This document shows, one piece after another, positions 3,198 to 63,855 of a stretch of 64,000 nt of DNA. This stretch comes from Erysipelotrichaceae bacterium (lineage in GTDB: Bacteria; Bacillota_I; Bacilli_A; RFN20; CAG-826). The notes under the pieces are model-generated. The model was not told the DNA's origin and searched no databases. It saw nothing but the letters and a program-made list of their open reading frames with translations. Position 1 is the first letter of the stretch. Every line of letters starts with the position of its first letter. The position numbers and the translations under genes were made by a program. The DNA lies in assembly GCA_015058945.1 (NCBI GenBank), contig SVBF01000007.1, forward strand, positions 66,230-130,229, written 5' to 3'.

Positions 3198-4173
3198 TTG
3201 GCTTCCTCCCCCGTTTCTTTTCCTCATAAAGCATGGTGATCGAACGATCGGCTTCGCGGATGCGCCCGATCGAAGAAATCCTTCGCACCACACGCCCATC
3301 CACGGTTTGCTTGCCCACCAAAACCAAAAGGTCGAAATGATGGTAGATGTCACCGAGAAGATCCTCGCAGGTCGATTTCGTGTCCCCCGCCATAGCTAGA
3401 CGCGCCATGCGGTATGGCATCCCCTGGATATCCTTCGCGTGAATCGTCGTGATGATGGGGTGCCCGGACATCACGCAATTCAAGGCCGAAAGGAATTCCG
3501 CGCCCCGGCTCTCCGCGAGGACGATGTAGTCCGGATTGTTCCGCAAGGCGTTACGGATCAACGAGTCCGCCTTGCCATCCTCAAACCGGTCGTCCTCCAT
3601 CCAGAAGGTCATGTCGGTCATCCCATCCGCCCGGCAACGTTCGAGTTCGCCGATGTTATCGATGACGATGACCCGCGTCGCCACAGGCAGATTCATGAGG
3701 AGGTATTTCTGTAATTCCGTCTTCCCAGCACCGGTGATGCCACCGATCGCGATCGACTCTCTTTTGGCTAAGGCATCCAATAGGATCTTTTTGGTCTTGC
3801 CGGGAAAGAACGATTCGTCGTCGCTTACCGCCGAGCCGTCATGGCATACGCGGATGTTAAACGTGTAGACCTTTTGTTCGTAAACGCGCCCGATGGAAAG
3901 AAAGGCTGCGTTCAACCGATAACGCGAGAAAGAGACGTCGAGGATCGGCGAGGTATAGGAGAACTGCTGCTCGCTCATGTTCGCGATCTGTCGCAAAAAG
4001 GCGCCGATATCCTCGTTCTTCGCTTCGATGTTCGACCGTTTTCTCCCCTGAAACGAATCCTGATAGAAAATGGCTTCGCCGTTAAAGGAGACGTCCGTCA
4101 CGCTGGGACGCAAAAGCAAAGGCCTTAAGAATGACTCCTCAACATATGAGGTGATGCGTTCGAGATTATTCAT
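3187..4173 (-). CDS. CpaF/TadA/VirB11-family secretion ATPase
   Basis: Walker A GGITGAGKTE, the DYIVLAESRGAE box, and GHPIITTIHAKD (the CpaF His-box region). Likely start MNNLERITSY (329 aa). Confidence 0.75.
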   Translation of the reverse strand: MNNLERITSYVEESFLRPLLLRPSVTDVSFNGEAIFYQDSFQGRKRSNIEAKNEDIGAFLRQIANMSEQQFSYTSPILDVSFSRYRLNAAFLSIGRVYEQKVYTFNIRVCHDGSAVSDDESFFPGKTKKILLDALAKRESIAIGGITGAGKTELQKYLLMNLPVATRVIVIDNIGELERCRADGMTDMTFWMEDDRFEDGKADSLIRNALRNNPDYIVLAESRGAEFLSALNCVMSGHPIITTIHAKDIQGMPYRMARLAMAGDTKSTCEDLLGDIYHHFDLLVLVGKQTVDGRVVRRISSIGRIREADRSITMLYEEKKRGRKPNEE

Positions 4174-11261: not shown

Positions 11262-12137
11262 CTATTTTTTCGCGCAGAAAATGCGCAAACCGGAATCCAT
11301 TGCCTGAATATGGACGTTACCCATCGGCCCCTTCTCCCCGTCGAGGTCCCAAGGAAGGGGGTATTCGACCTCGATCTTGAAGTCGCTGGCGATGATTTTG
11401 ACGGTGCGCATCTTGAACAAAAGATAATGCAGCAAACCGTTGAAGATGCCGGGTTTGGTCAAAAAGAGCTCGAATTTCCCATCGTGGATGCTGGAGCTGC
11501 CCAAATTGATGGGGAAACCGCCCACGTTCTTGCCGTTAAGACAGAGAATAAAAGGGGTGAAGACATCGTAATCGACCCCATCGGCGACGATGTGGGTATG
11601 GATTTTCTTGGGCGCGAAGGCCTCCCCCACCGCCCGGAAATAATAGGCGATCCTGCCGATGCGCTTCTTGTATTTGCGCGGGGTGACATAAGGGATGTCC
11701 GCAAAGGCTCCGATCGCGGCGACATAGGTGAAGTAATCGTCGTTGATCTTGCCCATGTCAAAACCGCAGGAATGCCCTTCCTCGATGATCTTGAGGGCGC
11801 GGCGAAATGAGCCGTGGATGCCGAAATTGCGTCCCACGTCGCATACCGTGCCGCCATTGATGTAGCCTAGCGTCGGCGCGTTTTCCCTACCGATCAACGA
11901 GGCGGCGATATGGTTGAACGTGCCATCCCCGCCGGAAAAGATCAAGGCGTCATAAACGCCGCAGGCCTTTTGGGCCCGCTCGACGCCATCCTCCATCGAG
12001 GAGGTGAGGACGACGTCAAGGGAATCAAAGCAACGGGAAAGGCGCGACTTCACCTCGTCGATGTGACGGTTCACCACGCCGGTGCCCGTCGCCTCGCTAT
12101 AAAGGAATAACGCTCTCCCCCGTCCCATGTTGATCAC
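11262..12137 (-). CDS. Diacylglycerol/lipid kinase family protein (DAGK_cat, YegS/DgkB-like)
   Basis: The SGGDGTFNHIA catalytic motif. Confidence 0.75.
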   Translation of the reverse strand: MINMGRGRALFLYSEATGTGVVNRHIDEVKSRLSRCFDSLDVVLTSSMEDGVERAQKACGVYDALIFSGGDGTFNHIAASLIGRENAPTLGYINGGTVCDVGRNFGIHGSFRRALKIIEEGHSCGFDMGKINDDYFTYVAAIGAFADIPYVTPRKYKKRIGRIAYYFRAVGEAFAPKKIHTHIVADGVDYDVFTPFILCLNGKNVGGFPINLGSSSIHDGKFELFLTKPGIFNGLLHYLLFKMRTVKIIASDFKIEVEYPLPWDLDGEKGPMGNVHIQAMDSGLRIFCAKK

Positions 12138-12637
12138 TTGATGCGTTCGGGTTCGATCGCCTCTTCGCCCACGAGTTCCGCCTTAAGGATGCGCACGGGC
12201 GTGACGGGACGGTCGCGACGGTCGGTTTTGGAACTCGCGATACGGTCGACGACCTCCATGCCTTCGACGACTTTGCCAAAGGCGGCGTATTGGCCGTCGA
12301 GGAAACGGTCGTCCGCGTCGCAGATGAAGAATTGGCTGCCGGCGGAATCGAAGGCCTGCGAACGGGCCATGGAGATGACCCCGCGGTCATGATGCAACGG
12401 ATTGTTGAAGCCGTTGACCTTGAATTCGCCCTTGATGGCATAGCCGGGACCGCCGATGCCGATGCCCTCGGGGTCGCCGCCTTGGATCATGAAGCCCTTG
12501 ATGACGCGGTGGAAGATGAGCCCGTCGTAGAAGCCTTGGCTCACGAGATAGGCGAAGTTCCTCGCGCTATTGGGCGCGGCTTCGTAATCGAGTTCGATCT
12601 TGATGTCGCCCAGGTTTTCGATGTGTAAGATGACCAT
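12134..12637 (-). CDS. ppiB: Peptidyl-prolyl cis-trans isomerase, cyclophilin type
   Basis: HRVIKGFMIQGGDP...FFICDADDRFLDGQYAAFGKVVEGMEVV. Confidence 0.85.
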   Translation of the reverse strand: MVILHIENLGDIKIELDYEAAPNSARNFAYLVSQGFYDGLIFHRVIKGFMIQGGDPEGIGIGGPGYAIKGEFKVNGFNNPLHHDRGVISMARSQAFDSAGSQFFICDADDRFLDGQYAAFGKVVEGMEVVDRIASSKTDRRDRPVTPVRILKAELVGEEAIEPERIK

Positions 12638-54012: not shown

Positions 54013-54263
54013 ATTGGTTCATTCCTTTCCGATTCGACCTAAAGAATCCTAAGGTGAAATAATTCTACACTTTATCGAAGATAAATTAAGTCTCGAACCT
54101 AATCTTTATCCAGCAGCGCACCAAACACCGTTTTGGTGTGCGCTAGAGAAATTTTAGTTGTCTTTGAGTCGTCCCGAAATTTTCAAAAAAATAAAAGAGG
54201 ACCTCGACCACGTCGAGGAAATCCGCAAAAATGGAGCGCGATGCGGGATTGGAATCGCGTTCC

Positions 54264-54395
54264 ATAATTTGCCAAGAACAAGAAAAAAATCGGTTCACGG
54301 CAATTTATATTGTGATGGCATGGCATTGTCTGGCCAAGATTTCTAACATATAATTTGCCACGAACAAGAAAAAAATCGGTTCACGGCAATTTATA
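54264..54395 (+). repeat. Two 46-bp direct repeats (1 mismatch, 86-bp period), each starting with a -10-like ATAAT and holding an AATTTGCC/GGCAATTT inverted pair
   Basis: 54264-54309 and 54350-54395; the second copy ends at the RBS of the 54406 ATPase gene. Confidence 0.7.
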
Positions 54396-54405
54396 GGAGA
54401 CGATT

Positions 54406-55872
54406 ATGGTTGGTAGGAAACGAGAACAGCAAAAACTCAAGTCAGCGTTTCAAAGCAGGCGCGCGGAATTCGTCGGGGTCTATGGTCGCAGGCGTGTAGG
54501 CAAAACATATCTTATCAGCGAGTCCTTTGCGGGAAATTTCGTCTTTCAACACGCCGGGCTTTCCCCAGTGGAAGAAGAGCAAAAGGAAGCGGGATTGACG
54601 GAAGAGGAGAGCGCTGAACGCGCAATGCAGAAGCAGCTGGCCCACTTCCACGCTTCATTGCTCCGCGAAGGCGATGCAAATCCCGAGAAACCCAAAAGCT
54701 GGGAGGAGGCTTTCTTTCGCATGGAAAGGCTGATTGCCAAAAAACGCTCTAAGACAAAAAAAGTCGTTTTTCTCGATGAACTCCCGTGGATGGACACCCC
54801 AAAAGCTGGGTTTATCACCGCTTTGGAGGGCTTCTGGAACACATGGGGATGCCACCAAAACGACCTGCTTTTCATCGTTGCTGGATCAGCGACTTCATGG
54901 ATGACGGACAAACTCATCAATAATCATGGCGGGCTTTATGGCAGGCTCACAAGGGAAATCCGCTTGGATCCGATGACCCTTGGGGAATGCAAGGAACTAT
55001 TTAAGGAAAACGGGGTGGTGATTTCCGATTACGACATCGCTCAGGCTTATATGGTTTTCGGTGGTATCCCCTACTACTTGAATCCGATGGAAAGCTGGCA
55101 AAGCCTTGCCCAATATGTCGACGAATGCTTCTTCAGCGGGAAAGCAACGCTAAAGAGGGAGTTCGATCGGCTATTCGAATCCGTGTTCACCAATCCCGAT
55201 ACCATGAAATCCATCGTCAAGGCATTATTTTGCAGACGCATTGGGCTCACCCGCGCCGAAATCGAGGAAAACACGGGGGTTAAAACCGGAGGAGGGTTAA
55301 CGCGTTATCTCAATGCCTTAGCAGACAGCGATTTCATCGTGGAGTATTTCCCGTTTGGAATGGGAAAGAGAGAGCCTTACTATAGGCTAAGCGATCCTTT
55401 TTGCTGGTTCTATCTATCCTTCGTTGAGGGTAAGAAAGGGCTCCCGGCGAACTTTTGGCAGGGGAACACGGCCTCGCAGAGAATCGTTTCGTGGCGAGGA
55501 CTTGCGTTCGAAAACCTATGTTTCCTCCACGTTCCGCAGATCAAGGCGGCCCTTGGAGTCGCCGCGGTGACAAGCGAGGAATCGGCATTCACCAAGCGCG
55601 GGGACAGCCAAGAGCAAGGCGGGCAAATCGACCTTCTCATCCTACGCGCTGATAACATCACCGACCTTTGCGAAGCGAAGTTTGCCTCAGGGAGATACAA
55701 GTTGGGGAAGAGCGAATACCTGAAACTCAGCGATAGAGAGGCGATCGTCAGTGAATTGCTTCCAAAGAAGCATGCGGTTCATAAAGTTTTGCTGACAACC
55801 TTCGGGATTGCCGACAATGAGTATAGGTGGACATTCAATTCGGTCGTCACACTCGAGGATTTAATGAAGTGA
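54406..55872 (+). CDS. ATPase_2 (archaeal-type AAA) + DUF234 family ATP-binding protein
   Basis: Walker A GRRRVGKTYL, Walker B VVFLDELPWM. Paralogous to 56518..57954. Confidence 0.75.
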   Translation: MVGRKREQQKLKSAFQSRRAEFVGVYGRRRVGKTYLISESFAGNFVFQHAGLSPVEEEQKEAGLTEEESAERAMQKQLAHFHASLLREGDANPEKPKSWEEAFFRMERLIAKKRSKTKKVVFLDELPWMDTPKAGFITALEGFWNTWGCHQNDLLFIVAGSATSWMTDKLINNHGGLYGRLTREIRLDPMTLGECKELFKENGVVISDYDIAQAYMVFGGIPYYLNPMESWQSLAQYVDECFFSGKATLKREFDRLFESVFTNPDTMKSIVKALFCRRIGLTRAEIEENTGVKTGGGLTRYLNALADSDFIVEYFPFGMGKREPYYRLSDPFCWFYLSFVEGKKGLPANFWQGNTASQRIVSWRGLAFENLCFLHVPQIKAALGVAAVTSEESAFTKRGDSQEQGGQIDLLILRADNITDLCEAKFASGRYKLGKSEYLKLSDREAIVSELLPKKHAVHKVLLTTFGIADNEYRWTFNSVVTLEDLMK

Positions 55873-55886
55873 GGAAAGAGGCCGAA

Positions 55887-56315
55887 ATGGTTGTTATCCG
55901 AGATATTCGAGAAAAGGATTACCCCGAGGTGGCGCGCATTTGGCGCGATGTCCTCGGTATCCCCGTGACGGATGAGTGCCTAGCGGAAACCTATGACAAA
56001 ATGGGCAAAGACGACCGCTACGCCACTTTCGTCGCGGAAGAGAACGGAAAGATCGTCGGTCTAATCGCGACGGTCGTTTGCCTTGCGATCGGTCATCCTA
56101 GCGGATACACCAAGATCAATGGACTCGGCGTGCTCCCCGAGCATCGGGGCAAGGGAATCGGCAGGATGCTCATAGAAAGGGCTGAAGAGTCCGCGAAGGC
56201 CAATGGGACAATGTATCTCGGCCTTGCTTCGGGGCTTCAGCGCAAGACGGCGCATGCCTTCTATGAACACATGGGTTACCAAAAGACATCCTACTGGTTC
56301 AGGAAAAGGCTTTAG
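55887..56315 (+). CDS. GNAT family N-acetyltransferase
   Basis: Start MVVIRDIREKDYPEV is preceded by GAGGAAAGAGG. Acetyl-CoA motif RGKGIGRMLIERAEE. Confidence 0.7.
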   Translation: MVVIRDIREKDYPEVARIWRDVLGIPVTDECLAETYDKMGKDDRYATFVAEENGKIVGLIATVVCLAIGHPSGYTKINGLGVLPEHRGKGIGRMLIERAEESAKANGTMYLGLASGLQRKTAHAFYEHMGYQKTSYWFRKRL

Positions 56316-56486
56316 GCATTTTATATAGCCCGATTCCGTCTCCAAAAAAGCGTTGATTATTTGTAGGCCAGCCATTGTGCAAAACAATCAATATCTTTTG
56401 ATTCCATCGGAATAATCTGAAAATAGCGGAGCGCGATGCGGGTACAAGGTCAAACGTTGTTTGCTCATTGAACACATTTATAAAAG

Positions 56487-56530
56487 AGCGGTTTTTTGTG
56501 TTTTCATCATTTTCCGCTCAGTTATGTTTC
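56487..56530 (+). repeat. Element E1: GAGCGG-22 nt AT-rich-CCGCTCA inverted-repeat element overlapping the stop codon of the 56518..57954 gene
   Basis: aaagagcggttttttgtgttttcatcattttccgctcagttatg; about 80% identical to E2 at 57995-58040. Confidence 0.6.
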
Positions 56531-57954
56531 GTAAACAAGTCATCGATGGTAATCGCTTTCGAAAAGACATCGCCATACAGGCTTCTTTTTAGGCCAAAAG
56601 TCGAAACGAACACAAGTTGTATGGACTTTCTTGTCCCTAAGTCTTCCCGATACCTTTCCTTTTTGTTCTCCAGATTATCGCGATAATCCTTGTCTACGGC
56701 GAATTCCTGCGACAGGTATTTGATTTCACATAGGGTAGCCACTTTGTCCTTGCGATCGATTACCAAATCAATTTGGGCTCCGTCCTTCCCGTCTTTCGCT
56801 TCCGCCCGGTAGGAATAATCCTCGGACAGAATCCCGGAAATGCCAAGGCTTCCCTTTATCGCGAACAGATGGTCGGAGACAACCCTTTCGAAGGAAAAGC
56901 CCAACCACGCCCTCCTTGAGGACTCGTTATAGGAATTCCTCCAGAAATGCTCGTCCTTCCCAGCGTTCTCCTGAATGAAATGGAAATAAAACAGGGTGAA
57001 ATAATCGGAAAGAACATAAAGGCGCCTTTTCTTTCTGCCAAGGTAAGAGGTCTTTATCCTCGCGAACCCGGACGATACGATCCCTTCGAGCGCCTCCGAA
57101 AGCGCCCCTCCATCGGAAAGGCCGGACCTTTTCGCGATTTCTTCGCGTGGCAAACCCGCTTTTTCTTTAGAGAGAAGCCTCATGATTTTGGCGGATACGG
57201 CGCCTTTGGTGAAAAGCGTTTCGTAAAGCTGTGGGAACTCTCCTTCCAGTTTGGCACCCGGCCTAAAGAAAAGCGCGTCAATGTTCTCGCTCGGCGTCAA
57301 AGCGGGGTCAAGTTTGTTTAAATAGTAAGGTATCCCACCCAAAGCCATATACATCATGACTATCTCGTAACGGGGCCATTCGAATCCCTTTCCAACGAGG
57401 TAACGCTCCGTTTCAAGCAAATTGAAGGGCTGAAGGCTAACCAAATCGGTGTGGCGGTTATATAGGCCGCCTTTGCTTTTCGTGAACTTCTTGTCGATCC
57501 ACGAGGAGGAAGACCCGCACAGGATCAGCATCAGATTGTCTTTTGCGGAAGCATAGTCATTCAAGAAATAATTGAACTCAAAGAGAAAACCGCTCTTCTT
57601 CGTATCCATCCACGGGAGTTCGTCCAAAAAGACGACTACCCTCTTTGAATCGTCAAAAGAGTCTATATGGTGGCGCAGGGAAGCGAAGGCATCGGCCCAA
57701 GTCCGGATTTCACCTTTGCCACGATAGCCGTATTCAAATAAGGCCTCGCTGAATTTGGCAAGTTGTTTCTTCATAGCGGCTTTATGAGTGCCCGTGAATT
57801 TGAAAGAAAGCCTTCCCTTAAACACGTGATTGACCAAAAAGGTCTTGCCGACGCGGCGGCGCCCCTTTACAAGCACAACGCTGAGTTCTCTGGCGGCATA
57901 GGCCCTTTCGAGATCATGTATTTCCGCTTCTCTTCCGATGATGACGCTTTCCAT
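56518..57954 (-). CDS. ATPase_2 + DUF234 family ATP-binding protein
   Basis: GRRRVGKTFL, VVFLDELPWMD; 478 aa. Confidence 0.75.
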   Translation of the reverse strand: MESVIIGREAEIHDLERAYAARELSVVLVKGRRRVGKTFLVNHVFKGRLSFKFTGTHKAAMKKQLAKFSEALFEYGYRGKGEIRTWADAFASLRHHIDSFDDSKRVVVFLDELPWMDTKKSGFLFEFNYFLNDYASAKDNLMLILCGSSSSWIDKKFTKSKGGLYNRHTDLVSLQPFNLLETERYLVGKGFEWPRYEIVMMYMALGGIPYYLNKLDPALTPSENIDALFFRPGAKLEGEFPQLYETLFTKGAVSAKIMRLLSKEKAGLPREEIAKRSGLSDGGALSEALEGIVSSGFARIKTSYLGRKKRRLYVLSDYFTLFYFHFIQENAGKDEHFWRNSYNESSRRAWLGFSFERVVSDHLFAIKGSLGISGILSEDYSYRAEAKDGKDGAQIDLVIDRKDKVATLCEIKYLSQEFAVDKDYRDNLENKKERYREDLGTRKSIQLVFVSTFGLKRSLYGDVFSKAITIDDLFTKHN

Positions 57955-57994
57955 GTGAACATTTTAGAAATAGCGGAATCTTTAATCAATTATA

Positions 57995-58040
57995 TATGAG
58001 CGGTTTTTTTGCATTTTTTAATTTTCCGCTCATTTATGAA
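57995..58040 (+). repeat. Element E2: second copy of the GAGCGG...CCGCTCA element in the 5' region of the 56518..57954 gene
   Basis: atgagcggtttttttgcattttttaattttccgctcatttatg. Confidence 0.6.
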
Positions 58041-58444
58041 CATTTTCTTTTTGCATTATGGGTAGTGCGAGTGCTAAAGTGGCGTCCGCAAAGCAAGTCC
58101 TATAATGTGCTTGGTTCCGGGTTGAAGCGGCGTGGCTTCCGCAAGAGAATCGGTTCAATGCCGTGGGAAATCCCTCGTGGTTCCTTGATTCAAATCGCGA
58201 TAATCGTCGCGTTCCGACACGCTTTAAAAGGGGAATGATGATTCCTGAAGATTTTCGTCCACCAAAATAAAAGCGTTTTTTAAGTGGGCGATTAGTGGGC
58301 CAAGTTTTTGGAAAAGTGCGACTGTATCGGATAAATTTTGGTCATGGTTCACGATGCGGGCCGCCAACCGAGAATTTGTTCACTATTTTTTACCCAGATA
58401 AATTGGTTTTTTACCCAAATAAGAATAGGGTCAATCCTTCAAAC

Positions 58445-58981
58445 CTATGAGTGCTTTATCGATCTCCGAATAGATGGCATCGCACTCCTCTGCGGATACG
58501 ATAGCGGACGGAATCCAAAAGGAGCGAAGGCTTCCAACGCTTTATCGCCGTCGAATAGCGTTTTCGCTTTGGCGTAGGCAAATTGGTTCGCATCGATTTC
58601 GTGTGGTTGGGAAAGGTATAACCTCGTGAAGCGATCCTCTCCGCCATCGAGGCGGCATGAAATCCATTTCCCATTGACCCTTTTCGAGCAATTCCCATCG
58701 TAGGCGATATCATAATCCAAGGCCTTGCGGATGGCGGGAGGGAAACGCTCGGGATGGGCGAATTGCTCCGCGTGGCGAAGCTCGTGGAAAAGATAGAAGG
58801 CCTTCTCGGAATCAGGGCATTCCTTAAGCAATGTGGCGTTCATGAAAACGGTATCCGTTTCCGGGTCATACATGCCGTTTGCTTCCTCGTAACCCTCGGG
58901 CATGTCAAAAGATAGGCGACAAACAAGCCCTGCCTCCAGGCGCAGAGAATCGAATGAGGCGCGATAATCAAAATCGGGCAT
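58445..58981 (-). CDS. HExxH-motif protein (putative zinc metallopeptidase-like)
   Basis: FHELRHAEQF. 178 aa with no signal peptide. Confidence 0.5.
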   Translation of the reverse strand: MPDFDYRASFDSLRLEAGLVCRLSFDMPEGYEEANGMYDPETDTVFMNATLLKECPDSEKAFYLFHELRHAEQFAHPERFPPAIRKALDYDIAYDGNCSKRVNGKWISCRLDGGEDRFTRLYLSQPHEIDANQFAYAKAKTLFDGDKALEAFAPFGFRPLSYPQRSAMPSIRRSIKHS

Positions 58982-58993
58982 TGCGTTTCTCCC

Positions 58994-60367
58994 CTAGAGC
59001 AAATACGCCATGTAACAAGGAAGCGCGACGATTCCGTCGGGACGGACGAAGAGGTTCTTTGGGTGCAGGATGAAGGCTCCCCCGATCCTCGCCTTGAATT
59101 TAGCGACGAACCGCGTCAAGGAGACATTCGCGTAATTCTTCGAGGACTTCACCTCGATGGGGAAAATCTTGGGTTTCGTCTTGCTTCCGTTGGAAAGAAG
59201 GAAGTCGATCTCGATGTCGTTGCGCTTCTTCTCCTCGCTGTAATGGGTGTAGAAATAAAGCTTATGGCCGCTCGCGACGAGCATTTGGGCGATGGCGTTT
59301 TCGTAAAGCATGCCTTCATTGACGGACAGCCTTCCGGACAAGATGGATGCGTATACTTCCTCCGCGATCAGCTCGTTTTCGTCAAAGGCATGGGAAACGA
59401 GAAGCCCGGTATCCCCCATATAGCATTTCACCGCCGCCCGGGATTCGTTGAGGGACAGCCCGACATTGGGGTCCGAGCAGGCGAAGCACTCATTGCAGAT
59501 CATGGAATCCGCGAGCCAGAAAAAGGTCTCCTCGTATTCGGGGTAATTCGTGTCCGATTCGATGAGACGAAGCCTCACCCTCTTCTCGTGCATCGATAGG
59601 AACGAGGGGATCTGATCGAATATGGAAAGGACCTTGGCTTTGTACTTCGCGTCGATCTTCATGATGTCGTCGCGGTAATTCACGAGGATGTCCCTCTTCT
59701 CCGCGTCGCAGTCGGCGAATTGCTTGCGGGCGAGCAGGAATTTGGATAGCGCCTTGGGCATGCCGCCGACCAGCATGTATTGCTTGAACAGCATCATGGC
59801 CCTTTCGTGAAGCCCGCGCTCCAAGGGAATTCTCTTTTCAAAGCAATCCCGGATATAGGGAAGCAATTGCTCTTCCCCGAGAGCCCAGGCGAATTCCTCA
59901 AAGTCCATGGGGTACATCTTGATCTTCCTTTCCTCACTGGGGATCGTGATGCCCTGGACGTTTTGCTTGATGGAGATCAAAGAGCCCGTCTCGATGAAAT
60001 CGTAACGGCCGTCCGCGACGAGGTATTTAATGGCTTCCCTTGCCTTGGGGTAAGCCTGAACCTCATCAAAGATGATAAGGCTCTCGCGCGGATAGAGCGT
60101 CTTCCCGTAAGCGGCGGAAAGCACCATGAAGAACGTGTCGAGTTTTTCGAGGTTGTCGCGGAAGTCGTCGAACACGATGCTGCTCGCTTTGTTGAAATCG
60201 ATGAGGATGTAGGAACGGTAATGGGCTTTGGCGAATTCCTCGACCGCCGTGGATTTGCCGATACGCCTAGCCCCTTCGATGAGCAAGGCCTTCTCGCCTT
60301 TTGATTCATTCTTCCACTTGAGGAGCTTTTCGGTGATTTTTCTTTTGAAAATGATTTCCGGTTCCAT
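58994..60367 (-). CDS. AAA_14 + DUF4143 family ATP-binding protein (COG1373-type)
   Basis: Walker A GARRIGKST, Walker B LIIFDEVQ. Likely ATG start MEPEIIFKRK is preceded by AAGGAGAA. The track ORF begins 18 codons upstream at a TTG inside a direct-repeat array. Confidence 0.75.
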   Translation of the reverse strand: MEPEIIFKRKITEKLLKWKNESKGEKALLIEGARRIGKSTAVEEFAKAHYRSYILIDFNKASSIVFDDFRDNLEKLDTFFMVLSAAYGKTLYPRESLIIFDEVQAYPKAREAIKYLVADGRYDFIETGSLISIKQNVQGITIPSEERKIKMYPMDFEEFAWALGEEQLLPYIRDCFEKRIPLERGLHERAMMLFKQYMLVGGMPKALSKFLLARKQFADCDAEKRDILVNYRDDIMKIDAKYKAKVLSIFDQIPSFLSMHEKRVRLRLIESDTNYPEYEETFFWLADSMICNECFACSDPNVGLSLNESRAAVKCYMGDTGLLVSHAFDENELIAEEVYASILSGRLSVNEGMLYENAIAQMLVASGHKLYFYTHYSEEKKRNDIEIDFLLSNGSKTKPKIFPIEVKSSKNYANVSLTRFVAKFKARIGGAFILHPKNLFVRPDGIVALPCYMAYLL

Positions 60368-60374
60368 GGGATTC

Positions 60375-60460
60375 TCCTTAAAACGCAAGGTAATAATAGT
60401 GAAGTTCGTCTTAAAACGCAAGGTATCTAATAATGATTATCTCCTTAAAACGCAAGGTAT
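60375..60460 (+). repeat. Three direct repeats of CTTAAAACGCAAGGTA (about 33-bp period) in the 5' region of the 58994..60367 gene
   Basis: Copies at about 60375, 60408 and 60443. Confidence 0.65.
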
Positions 60461-60584
60461 CTGTTCCGCGACGAGCTACGATATCATCACAACAAAAACG
60501 ATCTGTGTTCGATTGATCGGAAACACGATTGGAATCTTGCATCCCTCGTTCTTTGAAGCCCGATTTTATCTTCAAATAAAAATG

Positions 60585-60675
60585 CCGAATTTTTGTAACC
60601 CAAATGTAACCCATAAAAATATAAACCCCCGATGGCATCGAGGGAATTTGGCTTTTGGAACGCGATGCGGGAATC
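60585..60675 (+). repeat. About 90-bp element A: tandem TGTAACCCA x2, CGATGGCATCG palindrome and the GGAACGCGATGCGGGAAT motif
   Basis: Highly similar to element B at 62097-62186. It lies 110-200 nt upstream of the 60782 gene. Confidence 0.7.
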
Positions 60676-60679
60676 TTTG

Positions 60680-60742
60680 CACAAATCTCTCGGAGCAAAT
60701 ACCGCAATATTCTCGGTTTAAAATCCACAAATCTCTCGGAGA
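60680..60742 (+). repeat. Two perfect 16-bp direct repeats CACAAATCTCTCGGAG, 45 bp apart, upstream of the 60782 gene
   Basis: 60681-60696 and 60726-60741. Confidence 0.65.
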
Positions 60743-60781
60743 AACATTGATTTCGCAGCGTAATCAGCTTATCATTTTCAT

Positions 60782-62083
60782 ATGAAAACGGAACGAACGA
60801 AGAACTACTTGCCTAGAATCCAAGACAAAGAATTGGAGGATCTTCTTGCCGATTTCGGCGCGGTGTTAATCCGCGGGCCGAAATGGTGCGGAAAGACGAC
60901 GAGTGCAGAGCGCCTCGCGGAGTCCGCGATTTACCTAAACGATCCCGATCATTTGGAAGAGTACGAAGAAATCGCTTCCCAGCAAATATCTTTGTTTCTA
61001 GAAGGCGAAAACCCCCACCTCATCGACGAATGGCAAACATTCCCTTCCGTTTGGGACGCCGTCAGGGGAAAATGCGACCACAGCCCCGACAATGGCCTAT
61101 TCCTCCTCACCGGTTCAATATCGCCTAAGCCTGGTTCGACTAAGCATACCGGCGCGATGAGAATCAGCCGCCTAGATATGGAGTCGATGTCCCTTTGGGA
61201 ATCCGACGAATCGAGCGGCGACGTCAGTTTCGCTGCGCTTTTTAGTAAAAAGAACGGACCAATCAAAGGACGCGCAAAGCTCGATAAGGCCGGCATCACC
61301 GCAGCCATCGTGCGCGGGGGCTGGCCGAAAGCCATCGCCCAACCGCCGAGGAAGCTCTCCCATTACGGTGAGCAAGCCTTCGTTTCCATCTGCGAAACCG
61401 ACATTCAGGAGGCGACCGGTCTAGGTTTGAGCAAAGATACAACCGCCGCCATTTTGGCTTCGCTCGCCCGAAACATCACCATCCCCGTGACCAACGAGAC
61501 CATCATCAAGGACGTCAACGAGCATGGGCAGCCACTGTCCGAGGACACGTTCTACGAATACATCAAAGGGCTCCGTCGTCTCTTTGTCTTGCGCGAGGTC
61601 CCCGCGTGGAACCCGAATGTACGGAGCGCCACCGCCATCCGTTCTATCCCAAAGAAGGAATTCTACGACCCCTCCATCGCCTGCGCCGCCTTGGGTCTAG
61701 GGGTCGATGCCTTGAGCTACGATTTTAAGACGCGTGGATATTTCTTCGAATCGATGGCGGGAAGGGACCTTTCCGTATACGCATCCGCATTAGGCGGTTC
61801 CCTTTCCTATTACCGAGATCGTTATGGGTTGGAATGCGATTTCGTCGTCCATCTTCCCGACGGACGGTATGGCCTATTCGAATGCAAAACCGGAAGCAAA
61901 CACATCGAGGAAGGTTCGGCGCATCTCAACAAACTGCTGAAGCTTATCAAAGAACGTAGGGCGATGGAAAAAAGCGTCGTCCTAAGAGAACCCGAAGTCA
62001 TGGTCATCATCACCGATGGCGAATTCGCCTATCGAAGGGAAGACGGGATCGTCATATGCCCGCTCTCCTGTCTGAAGCCATAG
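60782..62083 (+). CDS. AAA_14 + DUF4143 family ATP-binding protein (COG1373-type)
   Basis: Walker A GPKWCGKTT and Walker B GLFLLTGS region; 433 aa. Confidence 0.75.
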   Translation: MKTERTKNYLPRIQDKELEDLLADFGAVLIRGPKWCGKTTSAERLAESAIYLNDPDHLEEYEEIASQQISLFLEGENPHLIDEWQTFPSVWDAVRGKCDHSPDNGLFLLTGSISPKPGSTKHTGAMRISRLDMESMSLWESDESSGDVSFAALFSKKNGPIKGRAKLDKAGITAAIVRGGWPKAIAQPPRKLSHYGEQAFVSICETDIQEATGLGLSKDTTAAILASLARNITIPVTNETIIKDVNEHGQPLSEDTFYEYIKGLRRLFVLREVPAWNPNVRSATAIRSIPKKEFYDPSIACAALGLGVDALSYDFKTRGYFFESMAGRDLSVYASALGGSLSYYRDRYGLECDFVVHLPDGRYGLFECKTGSKHIEEGSAHLNKLLKLIKERRAMEKSVVLREPEVMVIITDGEFAYRREDGIVICPLSCLKP

Positions 62084-62096
62084 GAAAGACACGGTT

Positions 62097-62186
62097 GTTT
62101 TTGTAACCCAAATGTAACCCATGGAAATGAAATTTCCCCGATGGTGTCAAGGGAATTTAGACATATAGAGCGCGATGCGGGAAATG
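62097..62186 (+). repeat. About 90-bp element B (copy of element A), ending in AGAGCGCGATGCGGGAAATG, abutting the stop codon of the AlbA_2 gene
   Basis: tttttgtaacccaaatgtaacccatggaaatgaaatttccccgatggtgtcaagggaatttagacatatagagcgcgatgcgggaaatg. Confidence 0.7.
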
Positions 62187-63608
62187 CTATTTTTTAAGCC
62201 AAAATTTCTTCCCCTTCGTCGCTTTGCCATTGTTCTCAACGGTCCCGGATGCACACATTTCCTTTAAGGCAAGGCTCACCGTGGCATTGTTCACGGAAAG
62301 CGTTTTTGCCAACTCGGTCACGCTTGCCTCTCCGAGTTCGGCCAAAGCATGGATGATCTTCGTCTCCAAATCCGGGGAATTCGTGGTCAGGTTCTGAGTC
62401 AGCAAAAAGACCAATGTGGTTCGGGACGGGGCGCTCGACTGTTCTAAAATGGGGTCCGGAAAGCCCAAAGCGCGCATTCTCCGATAGATGTTTGGGACGC
62501 CTTCGCCCGCTTTGTCGCCGATCCTCGCGAGATGGAGCAGGTTCATCACCCCCTCGTTCCTTGGGTCGCTTTCGCCGCCTTGCAGAACCTGGATGATGGG
62601 AAGCCTAAGCTTGCCGGCGTTTTTAAAAGTGAGCACGCCGCCGGAAAAAGTAAGCTGCACGCCTCCCGGAAGCAGGTAATCGCAATTAGCGATGGCGTTG
62701 GTCAGCCCTTCGCGGACGCACTCCAAAAGACCTTCTCCGCCGTCTTCGTATAATCCGTTAAGGTGAAAACGGTTCGGTAGCATCGGCTGGATGCGGTTGA
62801 CCACCATATGGTAGAAGTCGAACGCGTTGCCGGTCCACGTCAGGCTCGATGCCTCAAGGCGGTAGTCCCACCTCGACGCGCCGGTTTTGTTTTCCCGATA
62901 GTCGAGGTTATATTCCGGGAAGATCTCCTTGATCATCAGGTAATTACCGAAAAGGAGGACCGCCGCGTTGGTGGGGACGATCTTGCCATTCCCATTTTTC
63001 TTAAGCGCTCCGATATGGAGGAAGAAGTCCTCGTCCGAATCCCCGATAAGGAGGTTGTCCGGATTCCTGGCGTTGAAGATGGAGCGGTATTTCGAAAGCG
63101 TGTCCCGGTTGAGGTCGCCGAATTCATATCCCGCCGCGTTCGGGCGCATGTCAAATTTCTGCGGGACCGCGTCGAGTTCCATCGCCCTCCTCTCGAACGC
63201 GGATGCTGGATAATCGCCGTCGTCCTTCCTCAAATAGCAAAGCGCGGGATTGCCGTTTAGGTATACTGGCTTAAGGGAAATCGGCGCCTCCCTGACCGCG
63301 ATCGCGATGACGGTCTTTCCCTCGACCGACATCACTTGCCATTGCGAATCGTCAACGAGCGCCACGGAAACCTTCGTCTTGTTGTTTATCGCGCTGAAAA
63401 AGGACTTCTTGAGCATCGGCTCATTGGTCACGCCCGTGATGATGTTCTTGGGCTTCTTCTCCTTGACGCCCAAATACATGGTTCCTCCCCGCGTGTTCGC
63501 GAAGCTCGAATAGGTTTCGTACATATTAATTGGCAAGTTGTCGGATGCCTCCTTCAGCTCGATCGTCTGGCTTTCGCGCAAAGTGTATAAATCAACTTGA
63601 TCGTTCAT
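62187..63608 (-). CDS. AlbA_2 (Schlafen-like divergent AAA) + HATPase_c_4 + C-terminal wHTH protein (RecG-like putative transcriptional regulator)
   Basis: 473 aa with an AlbA_2-type N-terminal signature and a C-terminal helix-turn-helix ELAKTLSVNNATVSLALKEM. Confidence 0.7.
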   Translation of the reverse strand: MNDQVDLYTLRESQTIELKEASDNLPINMYETYSSFANTRGGTMYLGVKEKKPKNIITGVTNEPMLKKSFFSAINNKTKVSVALVDDSQWQVMSVEGKTVIAIAVREAPISLKPVYLNGNPALCYLRKDDGDYPASAFERRAMELDAVPQKFDMRPNAAGYEFGDLNRDTLSKYRSIFNARNPDNLLIGDSDEDFFLHIGALKKNGNGKIVPTNAAVLLFGNYLMIKEIFPEYNLDYRENKTGASRWDYRLEASSLTWTGNAFDFYHMVVNRIQPMLPNRFHLNGLYEDGGEGLLECVREGLTNAIANCDYLLPGGVQLTFSGGVLTFKNAGKLRLPIIQVLQGGESDPRNEGVMNLLHLARIGDKAGEGVPNIYRRMRALGFPDPILEQSSAPSRTTLVFLLTQNLTTNSPDLETKIIHALAELGEASVTELAKTLSVNNATVSLALKEMCASGTVENNGKATKGKKFWLKK

Positions 63609-63794
63609 TTGGATATCCTCCCAGAAAAATAATACAACAACCGATTCATTAATTCATTATTTATTCGTTAGAAAAAACTGTTTTTCATTAACAATGTCTA
63701 ATGAATGGCTGCAGAGTGCATGGAAATATTTGTATAGCGCTCCAAAGAAAAAGTTCGGAAATTCGTTCGGCAATCGTGCGGTTAATAAACGTAT

Positions 63795-63835
63795 ATATGA
63801 AAATGTCTCGACGACGCCGAGACATTTTCGTTTGG
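63795..63835. terminator. Bidirectional terminator (11-bp perfect stem AAAATGTCTCG/CGAGACATTTT)
   Basis: gaaaatgtctcgacgacgccgagacattttcgttt with T-rich tails on both strands. Confidence 0.65.
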
Positions 63836-63837
63836 TG

Positions 63838-63855
63838 GAGCACGATGCGGGATTA
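63838..63855 (+). repeat. Sixth copy of the GGAGC(G/A)CGATGCGGGA motif, overlapping the stop of the partial minus-strand gene
   Basis: ggagcacgatgcgggatt. The other copies are at 54233, 56428, 58346, 60657 and 62168, all on the plus strand. Confidence 0.7.

Follow-up and report, generated by a model that had tools for sequence, protein, structure and literature searches.

What delimits the gene-sized units in this stretch of DNA (64,000 nucleotides, called the window below), and how did they come to lie side by side? A first-pass annotation had seen individual ATPase genes bracketed by paired copies of longer repeat elements, E1 and E2 or A and B, and had likened them to attC- or pdif-bounded cassettes or MITE-mobilised genes. 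We found that positions 54231-63851, a 9.6-kb island in this uncultured rumen bacterium, hold a row of five small gene cassettes of 1.5-2.3 kb, each with one or two genes and each closed by a copy of the 17 bases that end a glycine tRNA gene. The general idea of gene-sized units with direct copies of a recombination-type site at their ends was supported. These are probably mobile cassettes without a recombinase of their own, inserted at a tRNA-Gly end by a site-specific recombinase acting in trans. We read the array, as the best account, as tRNA-island accretion in a variant form that is arranged like an integron.

The cargo consists mostly of candidate anti-phage ATPases (PDC-S27 and PDC-S01) plus a Schlafen gene, and gene orientation is mixed across the cassettes:

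54248-56442, no strand: cassette 1, an ATPase_2 gene and a GNAT acetyltransferase gene
54264-54309 and 54350-54395: 46-nt hairpin element of cassette 1, tandemly duplicated upstream of its genes
54406-55872, plus strand: 488-aa ATPase_2 (PDC-S27), cassette 1
55827-56315, plus strand: GNAT acetyltransferase, cassette 1
56443-58360, no strand: cassette 2, one ATPase_2 gene bracketed by E1 and E2
56518-57954, minus strand: 478-aa ATPase_2 (PDC-S27), cassette 2
58361-60671, no strand: cassette 3, two genes, closing with element A
58445-58981, minus strand: 178-aa DUF6782-like protein, cassette 3
58994-60367, minus strand: 457-aa AAA_14/DUF4143 (PDC-S01), cassette 3
60672-62181, no strand: cassette 4, one AAA_14/DUF4143 gene, closing with element B
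60672-60760: leader of cassette 4, about 100 nt, with CACAAATCTCTCGGAG twice
60782-62083, plus strand: 433-aa AAA_14/DUF4143 (PDC-S01), cassette 4
62182-63851, no strand: cassette 5, one Schlafen gene
62187-63608, minus strand: 473-aa Schlafen AlbA_2/HATPase_c_4/HTH, cassette 5

The PADLOC profile PDC-S27 matched over its full length with E = 9e-174 for the 488-aa protein and 9e-168 for the 478-aa protein, as did PDC-S01 with E = 3e-104 for the 457-aa protein and 1e-48 for the 433-aa protein. Both are candidate defence families whose anti-phage activity is still unvalidated (PMC12988326).

The feature common to all unit boundaries is a 17-mer, not E and not the whole of A or B. This is the "16-mer" of the first-pass annotation, nTGGAGCRCGATGCGGGA, which sits in each intergenic gap separating cassettes and has six copies on one strand over 54231-63851. 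The sequence CGATGCGGG within it occurs 12 times in the window, compared to 1.4 times expected. Six of these occurrences extend to matches of 15-17 nt, all on the plus strand and all intergenic. The other six were rejected as motif copies since they lie inside ordinary coding sequence and are chance matches. The motif copies and the features beside them are as follows:

54202-54218, minus strand: terminator-like hairpin CCTCGAC-gtg-GTCGAGG, then a T-run
54231-54247, plus strand: motif copy 1, ATGGAGCGCGATGCGGG, left end of the array; the tRNA-sense strand is minus
54231-54265: imperfect palindrome ATGGAGCGCGAT-N11-ATCGCGTTCCAT, whose left arm is motif copy 1
56426-56442, plus strand: motif copy 2, GCGGAGCGCGATGCGGG, boundary of cassettes 1 and 2, without a strong hairpin beside it
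58344-58360, plus strand: motif copy 3, ATGGTTCACGATGCGGG, boundary of cassettes 2 and 3, the most diverged copy
60588-60672, plus strand: element A, 3'-terminal segment of cassette 3, with TGTAACCCA twice, hairpin, spacer and motif copy 4
60644-60626 plus TTTATATTTT: element A hairpin CCCCCGATGgcATCGAGGG, a terminator on the minus, tRNA-sense strand
60655-60671, plus strand: motif copy 4, TTGGAACGCGATGCGGG, end of element A and boundary of cassettes 3 and 4
62096-62182, plus strand: element B, 3'-terminal segment of cassette 4, ending with motif copy 5
62152-62136: element B hairpin, partly decayed
62165-62181, plus strand: motif copy 5, ATAGAGCGCGATGCGGG, end of element B and boundary of cassettes 4 and 5
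63799-63829, minus strand: 12-bp hairpin GAAAATGTCTCG...CGAGACATTTTC, 6 nt from copy 6, a "Schlafen-type" cassette end
63835-63851, plus strand: motif copy 6, GTGGAGCACGATGCGGG, right end of the array

The 16-mer had been left unrecognised. Read as its reverse complement, it matches the 3' end of tRNA-Gly(CCC), comprising the T-stem 3' strand CCCGC, the acceptor 3' strand ATCGYGC, U73 and CCA; CCA is also gene-encoded in the tRNA genes of the window genome. At nine related loci from rumen Bacilli, among the matches listed, an intact tRNA gene includes the motif. There, TGGAGCACGATGCGGGA runs on into AATCGAACCCG..., and ARAGORN called a tRNA-Gly(CCC) gene terminating in ...TTCGATTCCCGCATCGTGCTCCA. 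Copy 6, which directly adjoins the stop codon of a gene for a 364-aa lipoprotein, is identical to the 3' ends of the tRNA-Gly(CCC) genes of relatives. Among the matches listed, four of the seven metagenome contigs bearing tRNA-Gly(CCC) break off at most 300 nt downstream of the tRNA, as expected if a variable region begins there.

Most of the features named in the first-pass annotation lie where it placed them. The A/B repeat pair proved real, with 69 of 87 positions matching (79%). Both elements contain the tandem TGTAACCCA pair and both finish in the 16/17-mer; the CGATG/CATCG palindrome ascribed to each is intact in A and has decayed to CGATGGTGTCA in B. They had been taken for the two ends of one AAA_14 unit, but A closes the preceding cassette at its 3' end, and B does the same for the AAA_14 cassette. 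A and B are homologous cassette 3' ends, each consisting of a tRNA-type terminator hairpin and a tRNA end. Terminator-like sites on the minus strand adjoin copies 1, 4 and 5, the one at copy 1 being 13 nt downstream of its CCA end on the tRNA-sense strand. Copies 2 and 3 are degenerate and have no hairpins. The "Schlafen-type" hairpin end recurs in three relatives (L062, L133 and L157), and a diverged version is found in two more (L017 and L131). A hairpin lies 4-25 nt past the CCA end at 24 of 29 sites among the matches listed, and each of the eight intact tRNA genes that allowed an evaluation had one. At unoccupied tRNA-Gly genes, a hairpin of the same kind is a plain terminator.

Related genomes provide a direct view of insertion at the motif. 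These loci are a sample from a genome scan, and the spread of the system is at least that of the matches listed. An empty-site counterpart was found: locus L013 has a lipoprotein gene, a terminator and the uninterrupted junction TTGGAGCGCGATGCGGG/AATCTTTGCAC. Locus L052 has the flanks of L013 with cassette 3 (92% nucleotide identity to that of the window) between the junctions ...GCGATGCGGG/TCGCTAAC and ...CACGATGCGGG/AATCTTTGCAC, so the two loci differ by exactly one cassette. In L131, cassette 5 follows directly behind an intact tRNA-Gly(CCC) gene (1835-1908) and its far end is the tRNA fragment TTCCCGCATCGTGGACCA (3563-3579); homology to the window begins exactly past CGATGCGGG. Cassette 4 lies between two motif copies in L099 (88% nucleotide identity), where its right-hand neighbour differs from the one in the window, and L157 contains another array, which has four copies of the motif and a different set of cassettes. 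Over the 29 sites among the matches listed, flanks of four left-hand families meet at least 10 different right flanks, one of them the tRNA body, and they always do so immediately after CGATGCGGG. All 26 sites whose core is intact have this sequence unchanged, and the adjacent 7 nt to its left differ by cassette.

A cassette consists of one or two genes plus an end module on the plus strand that looks like the tail of a tRNA-Gly(CCC) gene, with a terminator hairpin, then a spacer of about 6-15 nt, then the final 17 nt of the tRNA. The comparisons show cassettes entering at the 17-mer by site-specific recombination, either in a genuine tRNA-Gly(CCC) gene or in a copy that a previous cassette left behind. 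When one arrives beside the tRNA body, it provides the gene with a new 3' end and terminator and displaces the old copy, and the array grows through repeated insertion. Strand exchange may take place within the invariant CGATGCGGG or at its T-loop edge.

Neither the cassettes nor the 10 kb to each side of the array yielded a recombinase gene. There was no match of the Phage_integrase type among the cassette genes, the genes called within 10 kb on either side and ten further open reading frames of the window, and no integrase gene inside the cassettes of the window, L052, L099, L131 or L157. An ICE or IME ancestor or helper element of the cassettes was also not found in this analysis. Since no recombinase was identified, the enzymology is what we infer from the sites: the enzyme would be encoded at another place in the genome or on a helper element, and the likeliest candidate is a tyrosine integrase of a type directed at tRNA 3' ends. 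Some observations count against this reading. The insertion in L052 used a motif copy without a tRNA body to its right, and such a copy might be unsuitable for a classical integrase that requires both arms of the core. The window itself has tRNA fragments only, with no tRNA gene adjoining the array, and the tRNA body shows no significant similarity to the sequence that follows copy 6 on the right (p about 0.2). In this species, the array is identical in 15 of 15 contigs, except for an MmeI-gene variant at the left edge, which gives no sign of turnover in progress. No circular or excised cassette was seen.

Among the closest known systems are tRNA and tmRNA islands such as those treated by Islander and TIGER and the ssrA islands of Dehalococcoides (PMC3146451). 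These share integration into the 3' end of the gene, restoration of the gene by the element with a displaced 3' fragment marking the far end, and repeated integration that leaves a row of fragments in the same orientation. L131 shows the pattern that Islander looks for, an intact tRNA gene with a displaced 3' fragment at the opposite end of the island, but not the integrase inside the island. Tandem islands of this type typically measure from several kb up to more than 100 kb and have an integrase of their own, in contrast to the units found here, which are 1.5-2.3 kb long, hold one or two genes and lack an integrase. Also, the window array has no intact tRNA, and displaced copies are targeted too.

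Another possible explanation is that the cassettes were never mobile as such and are remnants of serial integrase-carrying islands or prophages at tRNA-Gly(CCC), each reduced to its cargo gene. Tandem accretion at tRNA genes followed by decay to integrase-less, att-flanked CIMEs is well documented (PMC5704250), and the tycheposon islands of Prochlorococcus are another documented case of tRNA accretion (bioRxiv 10.1101/2020.12.28.424599). The degenerate, hairpin-less copies 2 and 3 and the IS3 elements near the tRNA in L067 and L133 would fit such decay. We consider it unlikely, since identically bounded units of 1.5-2.3 kb recur elsewhere (cassette 3 in L052, cassette 4 in L099 and cassette 5 in L131), a single cassette exactly separates L052 from L013, and the gaps between cassette genes and boundaries contain no integrase fragments or pseudogene debris. 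The motif-flanked, recombinase-less cassettes do have one mark of a CIME, retained attL and attR with integration and transfer genes absent; a CIME would also descend from an ICE or IME by decay and be mobilised in cis by an element integrating next to it. Like the CIMEs of streptococci (PMC5704250), they are att-flanked, lie in tandem and would need another element's recombinase. In published descriptions CIMEs are ICEs or IMEs that have decayed, and they are usually single and idiosyncratic (PMC5704250), whereas these are uniform single-gene units with identical boundaries across several genomes, each bearing a terminator and a tRNA end. Tycheposon islands are likewise variable islands next to tRNA genes with interspersed partial tRNA copies, older material pushed inward by new arrivals, and defence and niche cargo. 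However, tycheposons carry integrase and replication modules, and integrase-less material in their islands has no clear boundaries, whereas those seen here are sharp and conserved.

E1 and E2 raise a separate question, whether a smaller mobile unit is nested in cassette 2:

56475-56526, minus strand: E1, hairpin of GAGCGG, a 22-nt loop that is A-rich on the gene strand, and CCGCTC, then a U-run
57987-58038, minus strand: E2, hairpin of the E1 type, then TATATAAT on the gene strand

This repeat pair was also confirmed, with 43 of 53 aligned positions matching (81%). GAGCGG-N22-CCGCTC occurs exactly twice in the window (56486-56519 and 57998-58031), compared to 0.19 expected by chance. As reported, E1 overlaps the stop codon of the 478-aa gene and E2 is upstream of its start, by 36-84 nt. 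Both are internal to cassette 2 and are a different kind of element, so they are not the unit boundaries they were taken for. If they were recombination sites, the PDC-S27 ATPase gene and one E copy would form the nested unit. Direct hairpin repeats bracket homologues at 86%, 49% and about 40% amino-acid identity, in hosts spanning 33-55% G+C, and their stems vary yet remain complementary. Copies within a genome are closer (33/34 in L157) than orthologous copies between genomes, and many members of the family are on contigs of about gene length. We still find the nested unit rather improbable. A search for an empty site found none, the downstream copy is absent in three other homologues, and no recombinase is known in the PDC-S27 protein family. 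The TATAAT after E2 and the U-run after E1 fit a promoter or operator and a terminator. The element would probably act as operator and terminator, with E2 probably a promoter or operator; it is a hairpin that accompanies promoters of PDC-S27-type ATPase genes and occurs a second time past the end of the gene. The E-type hairpin recurs in distant homologues of this ATPase.

An integron-like system would have the hairpin and the 3' motif recognised as a folded, attC-like single strand by a dedicated recombinase, with the likeness to a tRNA end due to the evolutionary origin of the site or to coincidence. The array does share with integrons and CALINs its rows of mostly single-gene cassettes, its one-sided sites in the same orientation at cassette 3' ends, a hairpin that is conserved while the sequence varies, and the reshuffling of cassettes between genomes. 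Insertion requires no conserved right flank, and no recombinase adjoins the array, as in CALINs. Chromosomal integron cassettes are known to carry anti-phage genes. However, there is no GTTRRRY/RYYYAAC core within 130 nt of any boundary (searched from 130 nt upstream to 15 nt downstream of all six), no integron integrase (IntI) was found among the cassette genes or the genes called within 10 kb of the array, and the conserved part is a tRNA 3' end. Single-stranded folding gave significant z-scores for copies 1 and 6 only, with the other four unremarkable at -0.6 to +0.7, and there is no sign of single-strand recombination. In addition, cassette genes lie in both orientations, and the same hairpin serves as a terminator at unoccupied tRNA-Gly genes. 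The attC analogy thus fails, and we regard an integron-like mechanism as very unlikely. The pdif analogy did not hold either. IMEX at dif (CTX/TLC/RS1 arrays) and pdif modules are also recombinase-less units that rely on an enzyme from another locus and accumulate in tandem at a single site of the chromosome, but the site here is not dif-like, with 11-12 mismatches in 28 in the best match to E. coli or B. subtilis dif, and the six sites are all direct instead of alternating between XerC/XerD orientations. The MITE analogy fails as well: a MITE-mobilised gene would have terminal inverted repeats and a target-site duplication, but the unit ends are direct 17-mer copies, and the repeat families of the region include no terminal inverted repeats.

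That the 17-mer is a regulatory or insulator motif of the cluster and no recombination site, as its intergenic position beside terminator-like hairpins might suggest, is extremely improbable, since its orientation is constant whichever way the genes point, its sequence is exactly that of a tRNA 3' end, homology between genomes stops precisely there, and the empty and occupied sites of L013 and L052 contradict the idea.

The sequence CGATGCGGG was found 12 times in the 64-kb window, compared to 1.4 expected occurrences. Six of the 12 lie within ordinary coding sequence. The other six are extended matches to nTGGAGCRCGATGCGGGA, all on the plus strand, all intergenic and spaced 1.5-2.3 kb apart. 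These six motif copies bound five gene cassettes, whose genes were assigned to families using Pfam and PADLOC profiles. PDC-S27 and PDC-S01 are candidate defence families in PADLOC.

Motif copies 1-6 (extended CGATGCGGG matches) and the cassettes between them
54231, plus strand: motif copy 1
Cassette 1: ATPase_2 gene, 488 aa, PDC-S27, E = 9e-174; also a GNAT acetyltransferase gene
56426, plus strand: motif copy 2
Cassette 2, minus strand: ATPase_2 gene, 478 aa, PDC-S27, E = 9e-168
58344, plus strand: motif copy 3
Cassette 3, minus strand: DUF6782-like gene, 178 aa, and AAA_14/DUF4143 gene, 457 aa, PDC-S01, E = 3e-104
60655, plus strand: motif copy 4
Cassette 4, plus strand: AAA_14/DUF4143 gene, 433 aa, PDC-S01, E = 1e-48
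62165, plus strand: motif copy 5
Cassette 5, minus strand: Schlafen AlbA_2/HATPase_c_4/HTH gene, 473 aa
63835, plus strand: motif copy 6

The first-pass annotation had described two pairs of repeats, E1/E2 and A/B, each flanking one ATPase gene. Both pairs are present: extended E1 (56475-56526) and E2 (57987-58038) agree at 43 of 53 aligned positions, and A (60588-60672) and B (62096-62182) at 69 of 87. The shared 16-mer, which is the terminal part of both A and B, is more important than the pairs themselves. The genes lie on both strands but the orientation of the motif never changes, so a role as a gene-expression signal was ruled out.

Read on the minus strand, the motif is T-CCCGC-ATCGYGC-T-CCA. 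Its parts are the 3' strand of a T-stem, a 7-nt acceptor strand, the discriminator U and CCA, which is encoded in the tRNA genes of the window genome. A genome collection with one genome per species was scanned for the motif. The matches listed were mostly chance matches in high-G+C genomes, along with rumen Bacilli and Erysipelotrichaceae MAGs. In two of the listed loci (L067 and L083), ARAGORN identified a tRNA-Gly(CCC) gene whose 3' end is the motif. When the motif was lengthened into the T-arm, a metagenome scan returned seven loci, all with this same tRNA-Gly(CCC) and usually with tRNA-Val(GAC) adjoining. The boundary site is the 3' end of tRNA-Gly(CCC). The window species' own copy of the gene was not among these loci (0 of seven on its contigs), and no tRNA adjoins the window array. 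A local alignment suggested a decayed tRNA body to the right of copy 6, but shuffled sequence aligned equally well (p ~0.2), and Rfam gave zero matches for the array region at E up to 1.

All intact tRNA-Gly(CCC) genes in the retrieved loci have a terminator hairpin 8-12 nt past CCA. A hairpin on the tRNA-sense strand, 4-25 nt from the CCA end, was present at 24 of 29 true sites, and a generic terminator scan flagged minus-strand hairpins beside copies 1, 4 and 5. At a cassette 3' end, the hairpin is followed by TGGAGCRCGATGCGGG. This arrangement accounts for A and B, each of which is a cassette 3' end made up of a TGTAACCCA pair, a tRNA-type terminator (noted in the first-pass annotation as a CGATG/CATCG palindrome) and the tRNA 3' end. 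Ends of the A/B type sit directly behind an intact tRNA in three retrieved contigs (L129, L130 and L132). Four of the seven contigs L128-L134, one of them 233 kb long, stop less than 300 nt downstream of tRNA-Gly(CCC), which suggests that a variable or repeated region begins there and regularly interrupts assembly. Cassettes inserted at this site explain such breaks. In L067 and L133, the tRNA is closely followed by IS3-family transposase genes.

An empty site, expected of a mobile unit in the first-pass annotation, was found in a related genome. In the empty locus L013, a lipoprotein gene and a terminator are followed by TTGGAGCGCGATGCGGG joined to AATCTTTGCACAAATCTC. Locus L052 has both of these flanks and, between them, cassette 3 with its DUF6782-like gene and 457-aa ATPase gene, 98% identical to the window in amino acids and 92% in nucleotides. 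Its junctions are GCGATGCGGG to TCGCTAAC and TGGAGCACGATGCGGG to AATCTTTGCAC. In contig L131, a homologue of cassette 5 comes straight after an intact tRNA-Gly(CCC), with the fragment TTCCCGCATCGTGGACCA behind it, and homology with the window starts exactly behind CGATGCGGG. A MAG labelled Candidatus Enteromonas sp. (L099) carries cassette 4, at 93% amino-acid identity, between two motif copies, and its next neighbour is a different ATPase_2 cassette. A second array, with four motif copies, was found in a related organism (L157). It has only the cassette 2 homologue in common with the window array (86% amino-acid identity). The remaining units contain a RhuM-domain gene, a 385-aa gene that is a truncated ATPase_2 and no recombinase, and another AAA_14 gene. 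The cassettes are precisely inserted at the tRNA-Gly(CCC) 3'-end site, with the site on both sides, and the same cassettes occur in different contexts.

Across the 29 sites, four left-flank families were joined to at least ten right flanks, tRNA body included, and the position of the junction was constant. No variation in CGATGCGGG was seen at the 26 sites whose core is intact. Immediately left of it, on the CCA/acceptor side, 7 nt depend on the cassette (TGGAAC, TAGAGC, TGGTTC, CGGAGC etc.), and to its right only a frequent A is held in common. This pattern points to strand exchange within CGATGCGGG or at its T-loop edge. Copies adjoining a tRNA body have a perfect TGGAGCA without exception, as expected if the tRNA must remain functional.

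Within the window species, the array is fixed. Contigs with array genes (15 per look-up) had the same six copies wherever they covered the regions. The only array variant in the species is an HTH gene with an MmeI-type restriction gene, which replaces the sequence from ~100 nt left of copy 1. In the window strain, the replaced segment leads to the gene of a 713-aa Big_3 protein.

Strain variant left of motif copy 1
L002, 19150-21422: 62-aa HTH_3 gene and 986-aa MmeI-type restriction-modification gene
L004, 12440-14712: 62-aa HTH_3 gene and 986-aa MmeI-type restriction-modification gene

In both strains, homology with the window resumes just after GGTTCACGATTCCACTCCGCCACC, which is similar to copy 3 and its right flank. 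A protein search to extend the MmeI variant gave only matches of ~50% identity.

The array is surrounded by ordinary chromosomal genes, namely a fructose-type PTS operon and the Big_3 gene to its left and lipoprotein, lipase and thiol-activated cytolysin genes to its right. No recombinase gene was found among the cassette genes, in the 10-kb flanks or among ten more ORFs of the window; the 364-aa neighbour of the array is a lipoprotein and no recombinase. The cassettes encode no recombinase, and we infer that a site-specific recombinase encoded elsewhere moves them. Most plausibly, this would be one of the tyrosine integrases that target tRNA 3' ends, and it could come from the host or from a helper element. 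A cassette inserted beside the tRNA body would have to complete and terminate the tRNA, which would explain why the cassettes carry a tRNA end and a terminator. In L052, the insertion target was a copy without the tRNA's other core arm. The palindromic sites at array ends, ATGGAGCGCGAT-N11-ATCGCGTTCCAT at window copy 1 (54231-54265) and GATGCGGG-AATTA-CCCGCATC at L062 512-550, may be secondary attachment sites with two recombinase-binding arms.

The cassette idea of the first-pass annotation holds in outline, but its boundaries and its family were wrong, the boundaries being tRNA-Gly(CCC) 3'-end sites. The locus failed the tests for attC-, dif/pdif- and MITE-type units alike, with neither attC cores nor dif-like sites at any array boundary. 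In relatives, the att sites demanded by the definition of a tRNA-targeting island are present, but the integrase is missing. The formal definition of a CIME fits the locus (PMC5704250). In layout, with uniform, recurring single-gene units in array form, the locus is closer to an integron or a CALIN. Functionally, tycheposon-built islands and IMEX arrays at dif are parallels. The array is best viewed as a row of integrase-less cassettes with tRNA-Gly(CCC) 3'-end boundary sites, and is a novel form of tRNA-island accretion with an integron-like layout.

It is possible, at a little under even chances, that this is a dedicated integron-like cassette system built from a tRNA gene in uncultured rumen Bacilli (Erysipelotrichaceae/'Enteromonas'-like MAGs), and neither the debris of a larger island nor ordinary integron cassettes. 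Single-gene, defence-type cassettes would then have the tRNA-Gly(CCC) 3' end and terminator module as their sole recombination site, would be captured by a recombinase from elsewhere at the tRNA gene or at any prior copy, and would be reshuffled among species as whole units. PDC-type single genes travel here as precise, site-specific cassettes of 1.5-2.3 kb whose only mobility feature is the tRNA 3'-end copy with its terminator. The locus is a form intermediate between classical tRNA-linked islands and integron cassette arrays. The motif can serve as a tag in searches for variable-gene arrays of uncultured Bacilli, and the recombinase acting on CGATGCGGG is a concrete search target. PDC-S01 is the commonest single defence locus reported for rumen genomes (PMC13356809, PMC12988326), and it was reported to rank 4th by frequency among prokaryotic defence candidates.

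E1 and E2 were previously taken to bound the ATPase unit of cassette 2, but both lie inside that cassette. The 64-kb window has exactly two occurrences of GAGCGG-N22-CCGCTC (56486-56519 and 57998-58031; 0.19 expected). On the gene strand, each forms a 6-7-bp stem with a 22-nt A-rich loop. E2, located 36-84 nt before the start codon, precedes TATATAAT; E1 overlaps with the stop codon, and a U-run comes after it. Both copies are present at the 86% homologue in L157, 33/34 identical to one another. The 49% homologue in L161, from a 33% G+C organism, has a copy of a different hairpin element, 57 nt long, on either side, and the L169 homologue is bracketed by yet another hairpin repeat. The upstream copy is intact and the downstream copy decayed in L099. 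Cassette 1 has its own version of E in two tandem copies upstream, and three other homologues (L163, L165 and L167) have upstream inverted repeats only, so the bracket is not a universal ATPase_2 trait. The stems vary by locus yet remain complementary, and copies within one genome are more alike than orthologous copies between genomes. The most economical reading is that E is an ATPase-specific operator or promoter hairpin, reused or duplicated as a terminator. We consider it quite improbable that E1 and E2 are recombination sites of a nested mobile unit, although part of the family data fits. The PDC-S27 family of the 478-aa gene (56518-57954) has at least 7,900 members at E < 1e-20, found in Lachnospiraceae, Treponema, Butyrivibrio, Atopobiaceae and Bacilli, and in many clusters of tens to hundreds of sequences the longest contig is just 1.6-2.0 kb, about gene length, as expected for genes with flanking repeats that break assemblies.

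A 46-nt hairpin element, ATAATTTGCCA...GGCAATTTATA, is present in two 98% identical copies within an 86-bp tandem duplication (54264-54395) immediately upstream of the 488-aa ATPase_2 gene; the second copy abuts the ribosome-binding site. Strain L004 has a single copy, and assemblies L155 and L156 break there.

Each family of cassette 3' ends has its own direct-repeat pair with a period of ~11 nt, some 25-45 nt beyond the hairpin; the pairs in the window, L011, L134, L062 and L133 include TGTAACCCA twice, CGTGGTA twice and TTCGGTAA/TGCGGTGA. That these are arm-type binding sites for a recombinase or an accessory protein is no more than an idea, since the TGTAACCCA-type pair is not kept in the L052 copy of cassette 3. 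Three scans of viral contigs for a phage or satellite attP, based on the 17-mer, TGTAACCCAAATGTAACCCA and the leader that follows motif copy 4, gave only chance coding matches and one unrelated provirus. This IMG/VR provirus (L168, 29% G+C), the only viral match to TGTAACCCAAATGTAACCCA, has AATGTAACC three times in tandem at 12040-12299, with more copies of ATGTAACC and GGTTACA nearby that resemble iterons or operator sites. The match is probably a coincidence.

TCTCCTTAAAACGCAAGGTA is present in three tandem copies (60373-60461, period 33-34 nt) at the start of the minus-strand 457-aa AAA_14 gene and upstream of it, and the triplet is kept in L052. Each copy holds a ribosome-binding-site-like AAGGAGA on the gene strand, which is why the ORF list offers a TTG start at 60421; public assemblies call the ATG at 60367. 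The leader, ~100 nt long, lies directly right of motif copy 4 (60672-60760) and contains CACAAATCTCTCGGAG twice. It stands behind a motif copy in four genomes (the window, L013, L052 and L099), and the DNA beyond it differs. The window and L099 continue with an AAA_14 gene and L052 with the 3' side of a glycogen synthase gene, and L013 has other sequence there. The leader may be a cassette 5' module or the leftover of a deleted cassette.
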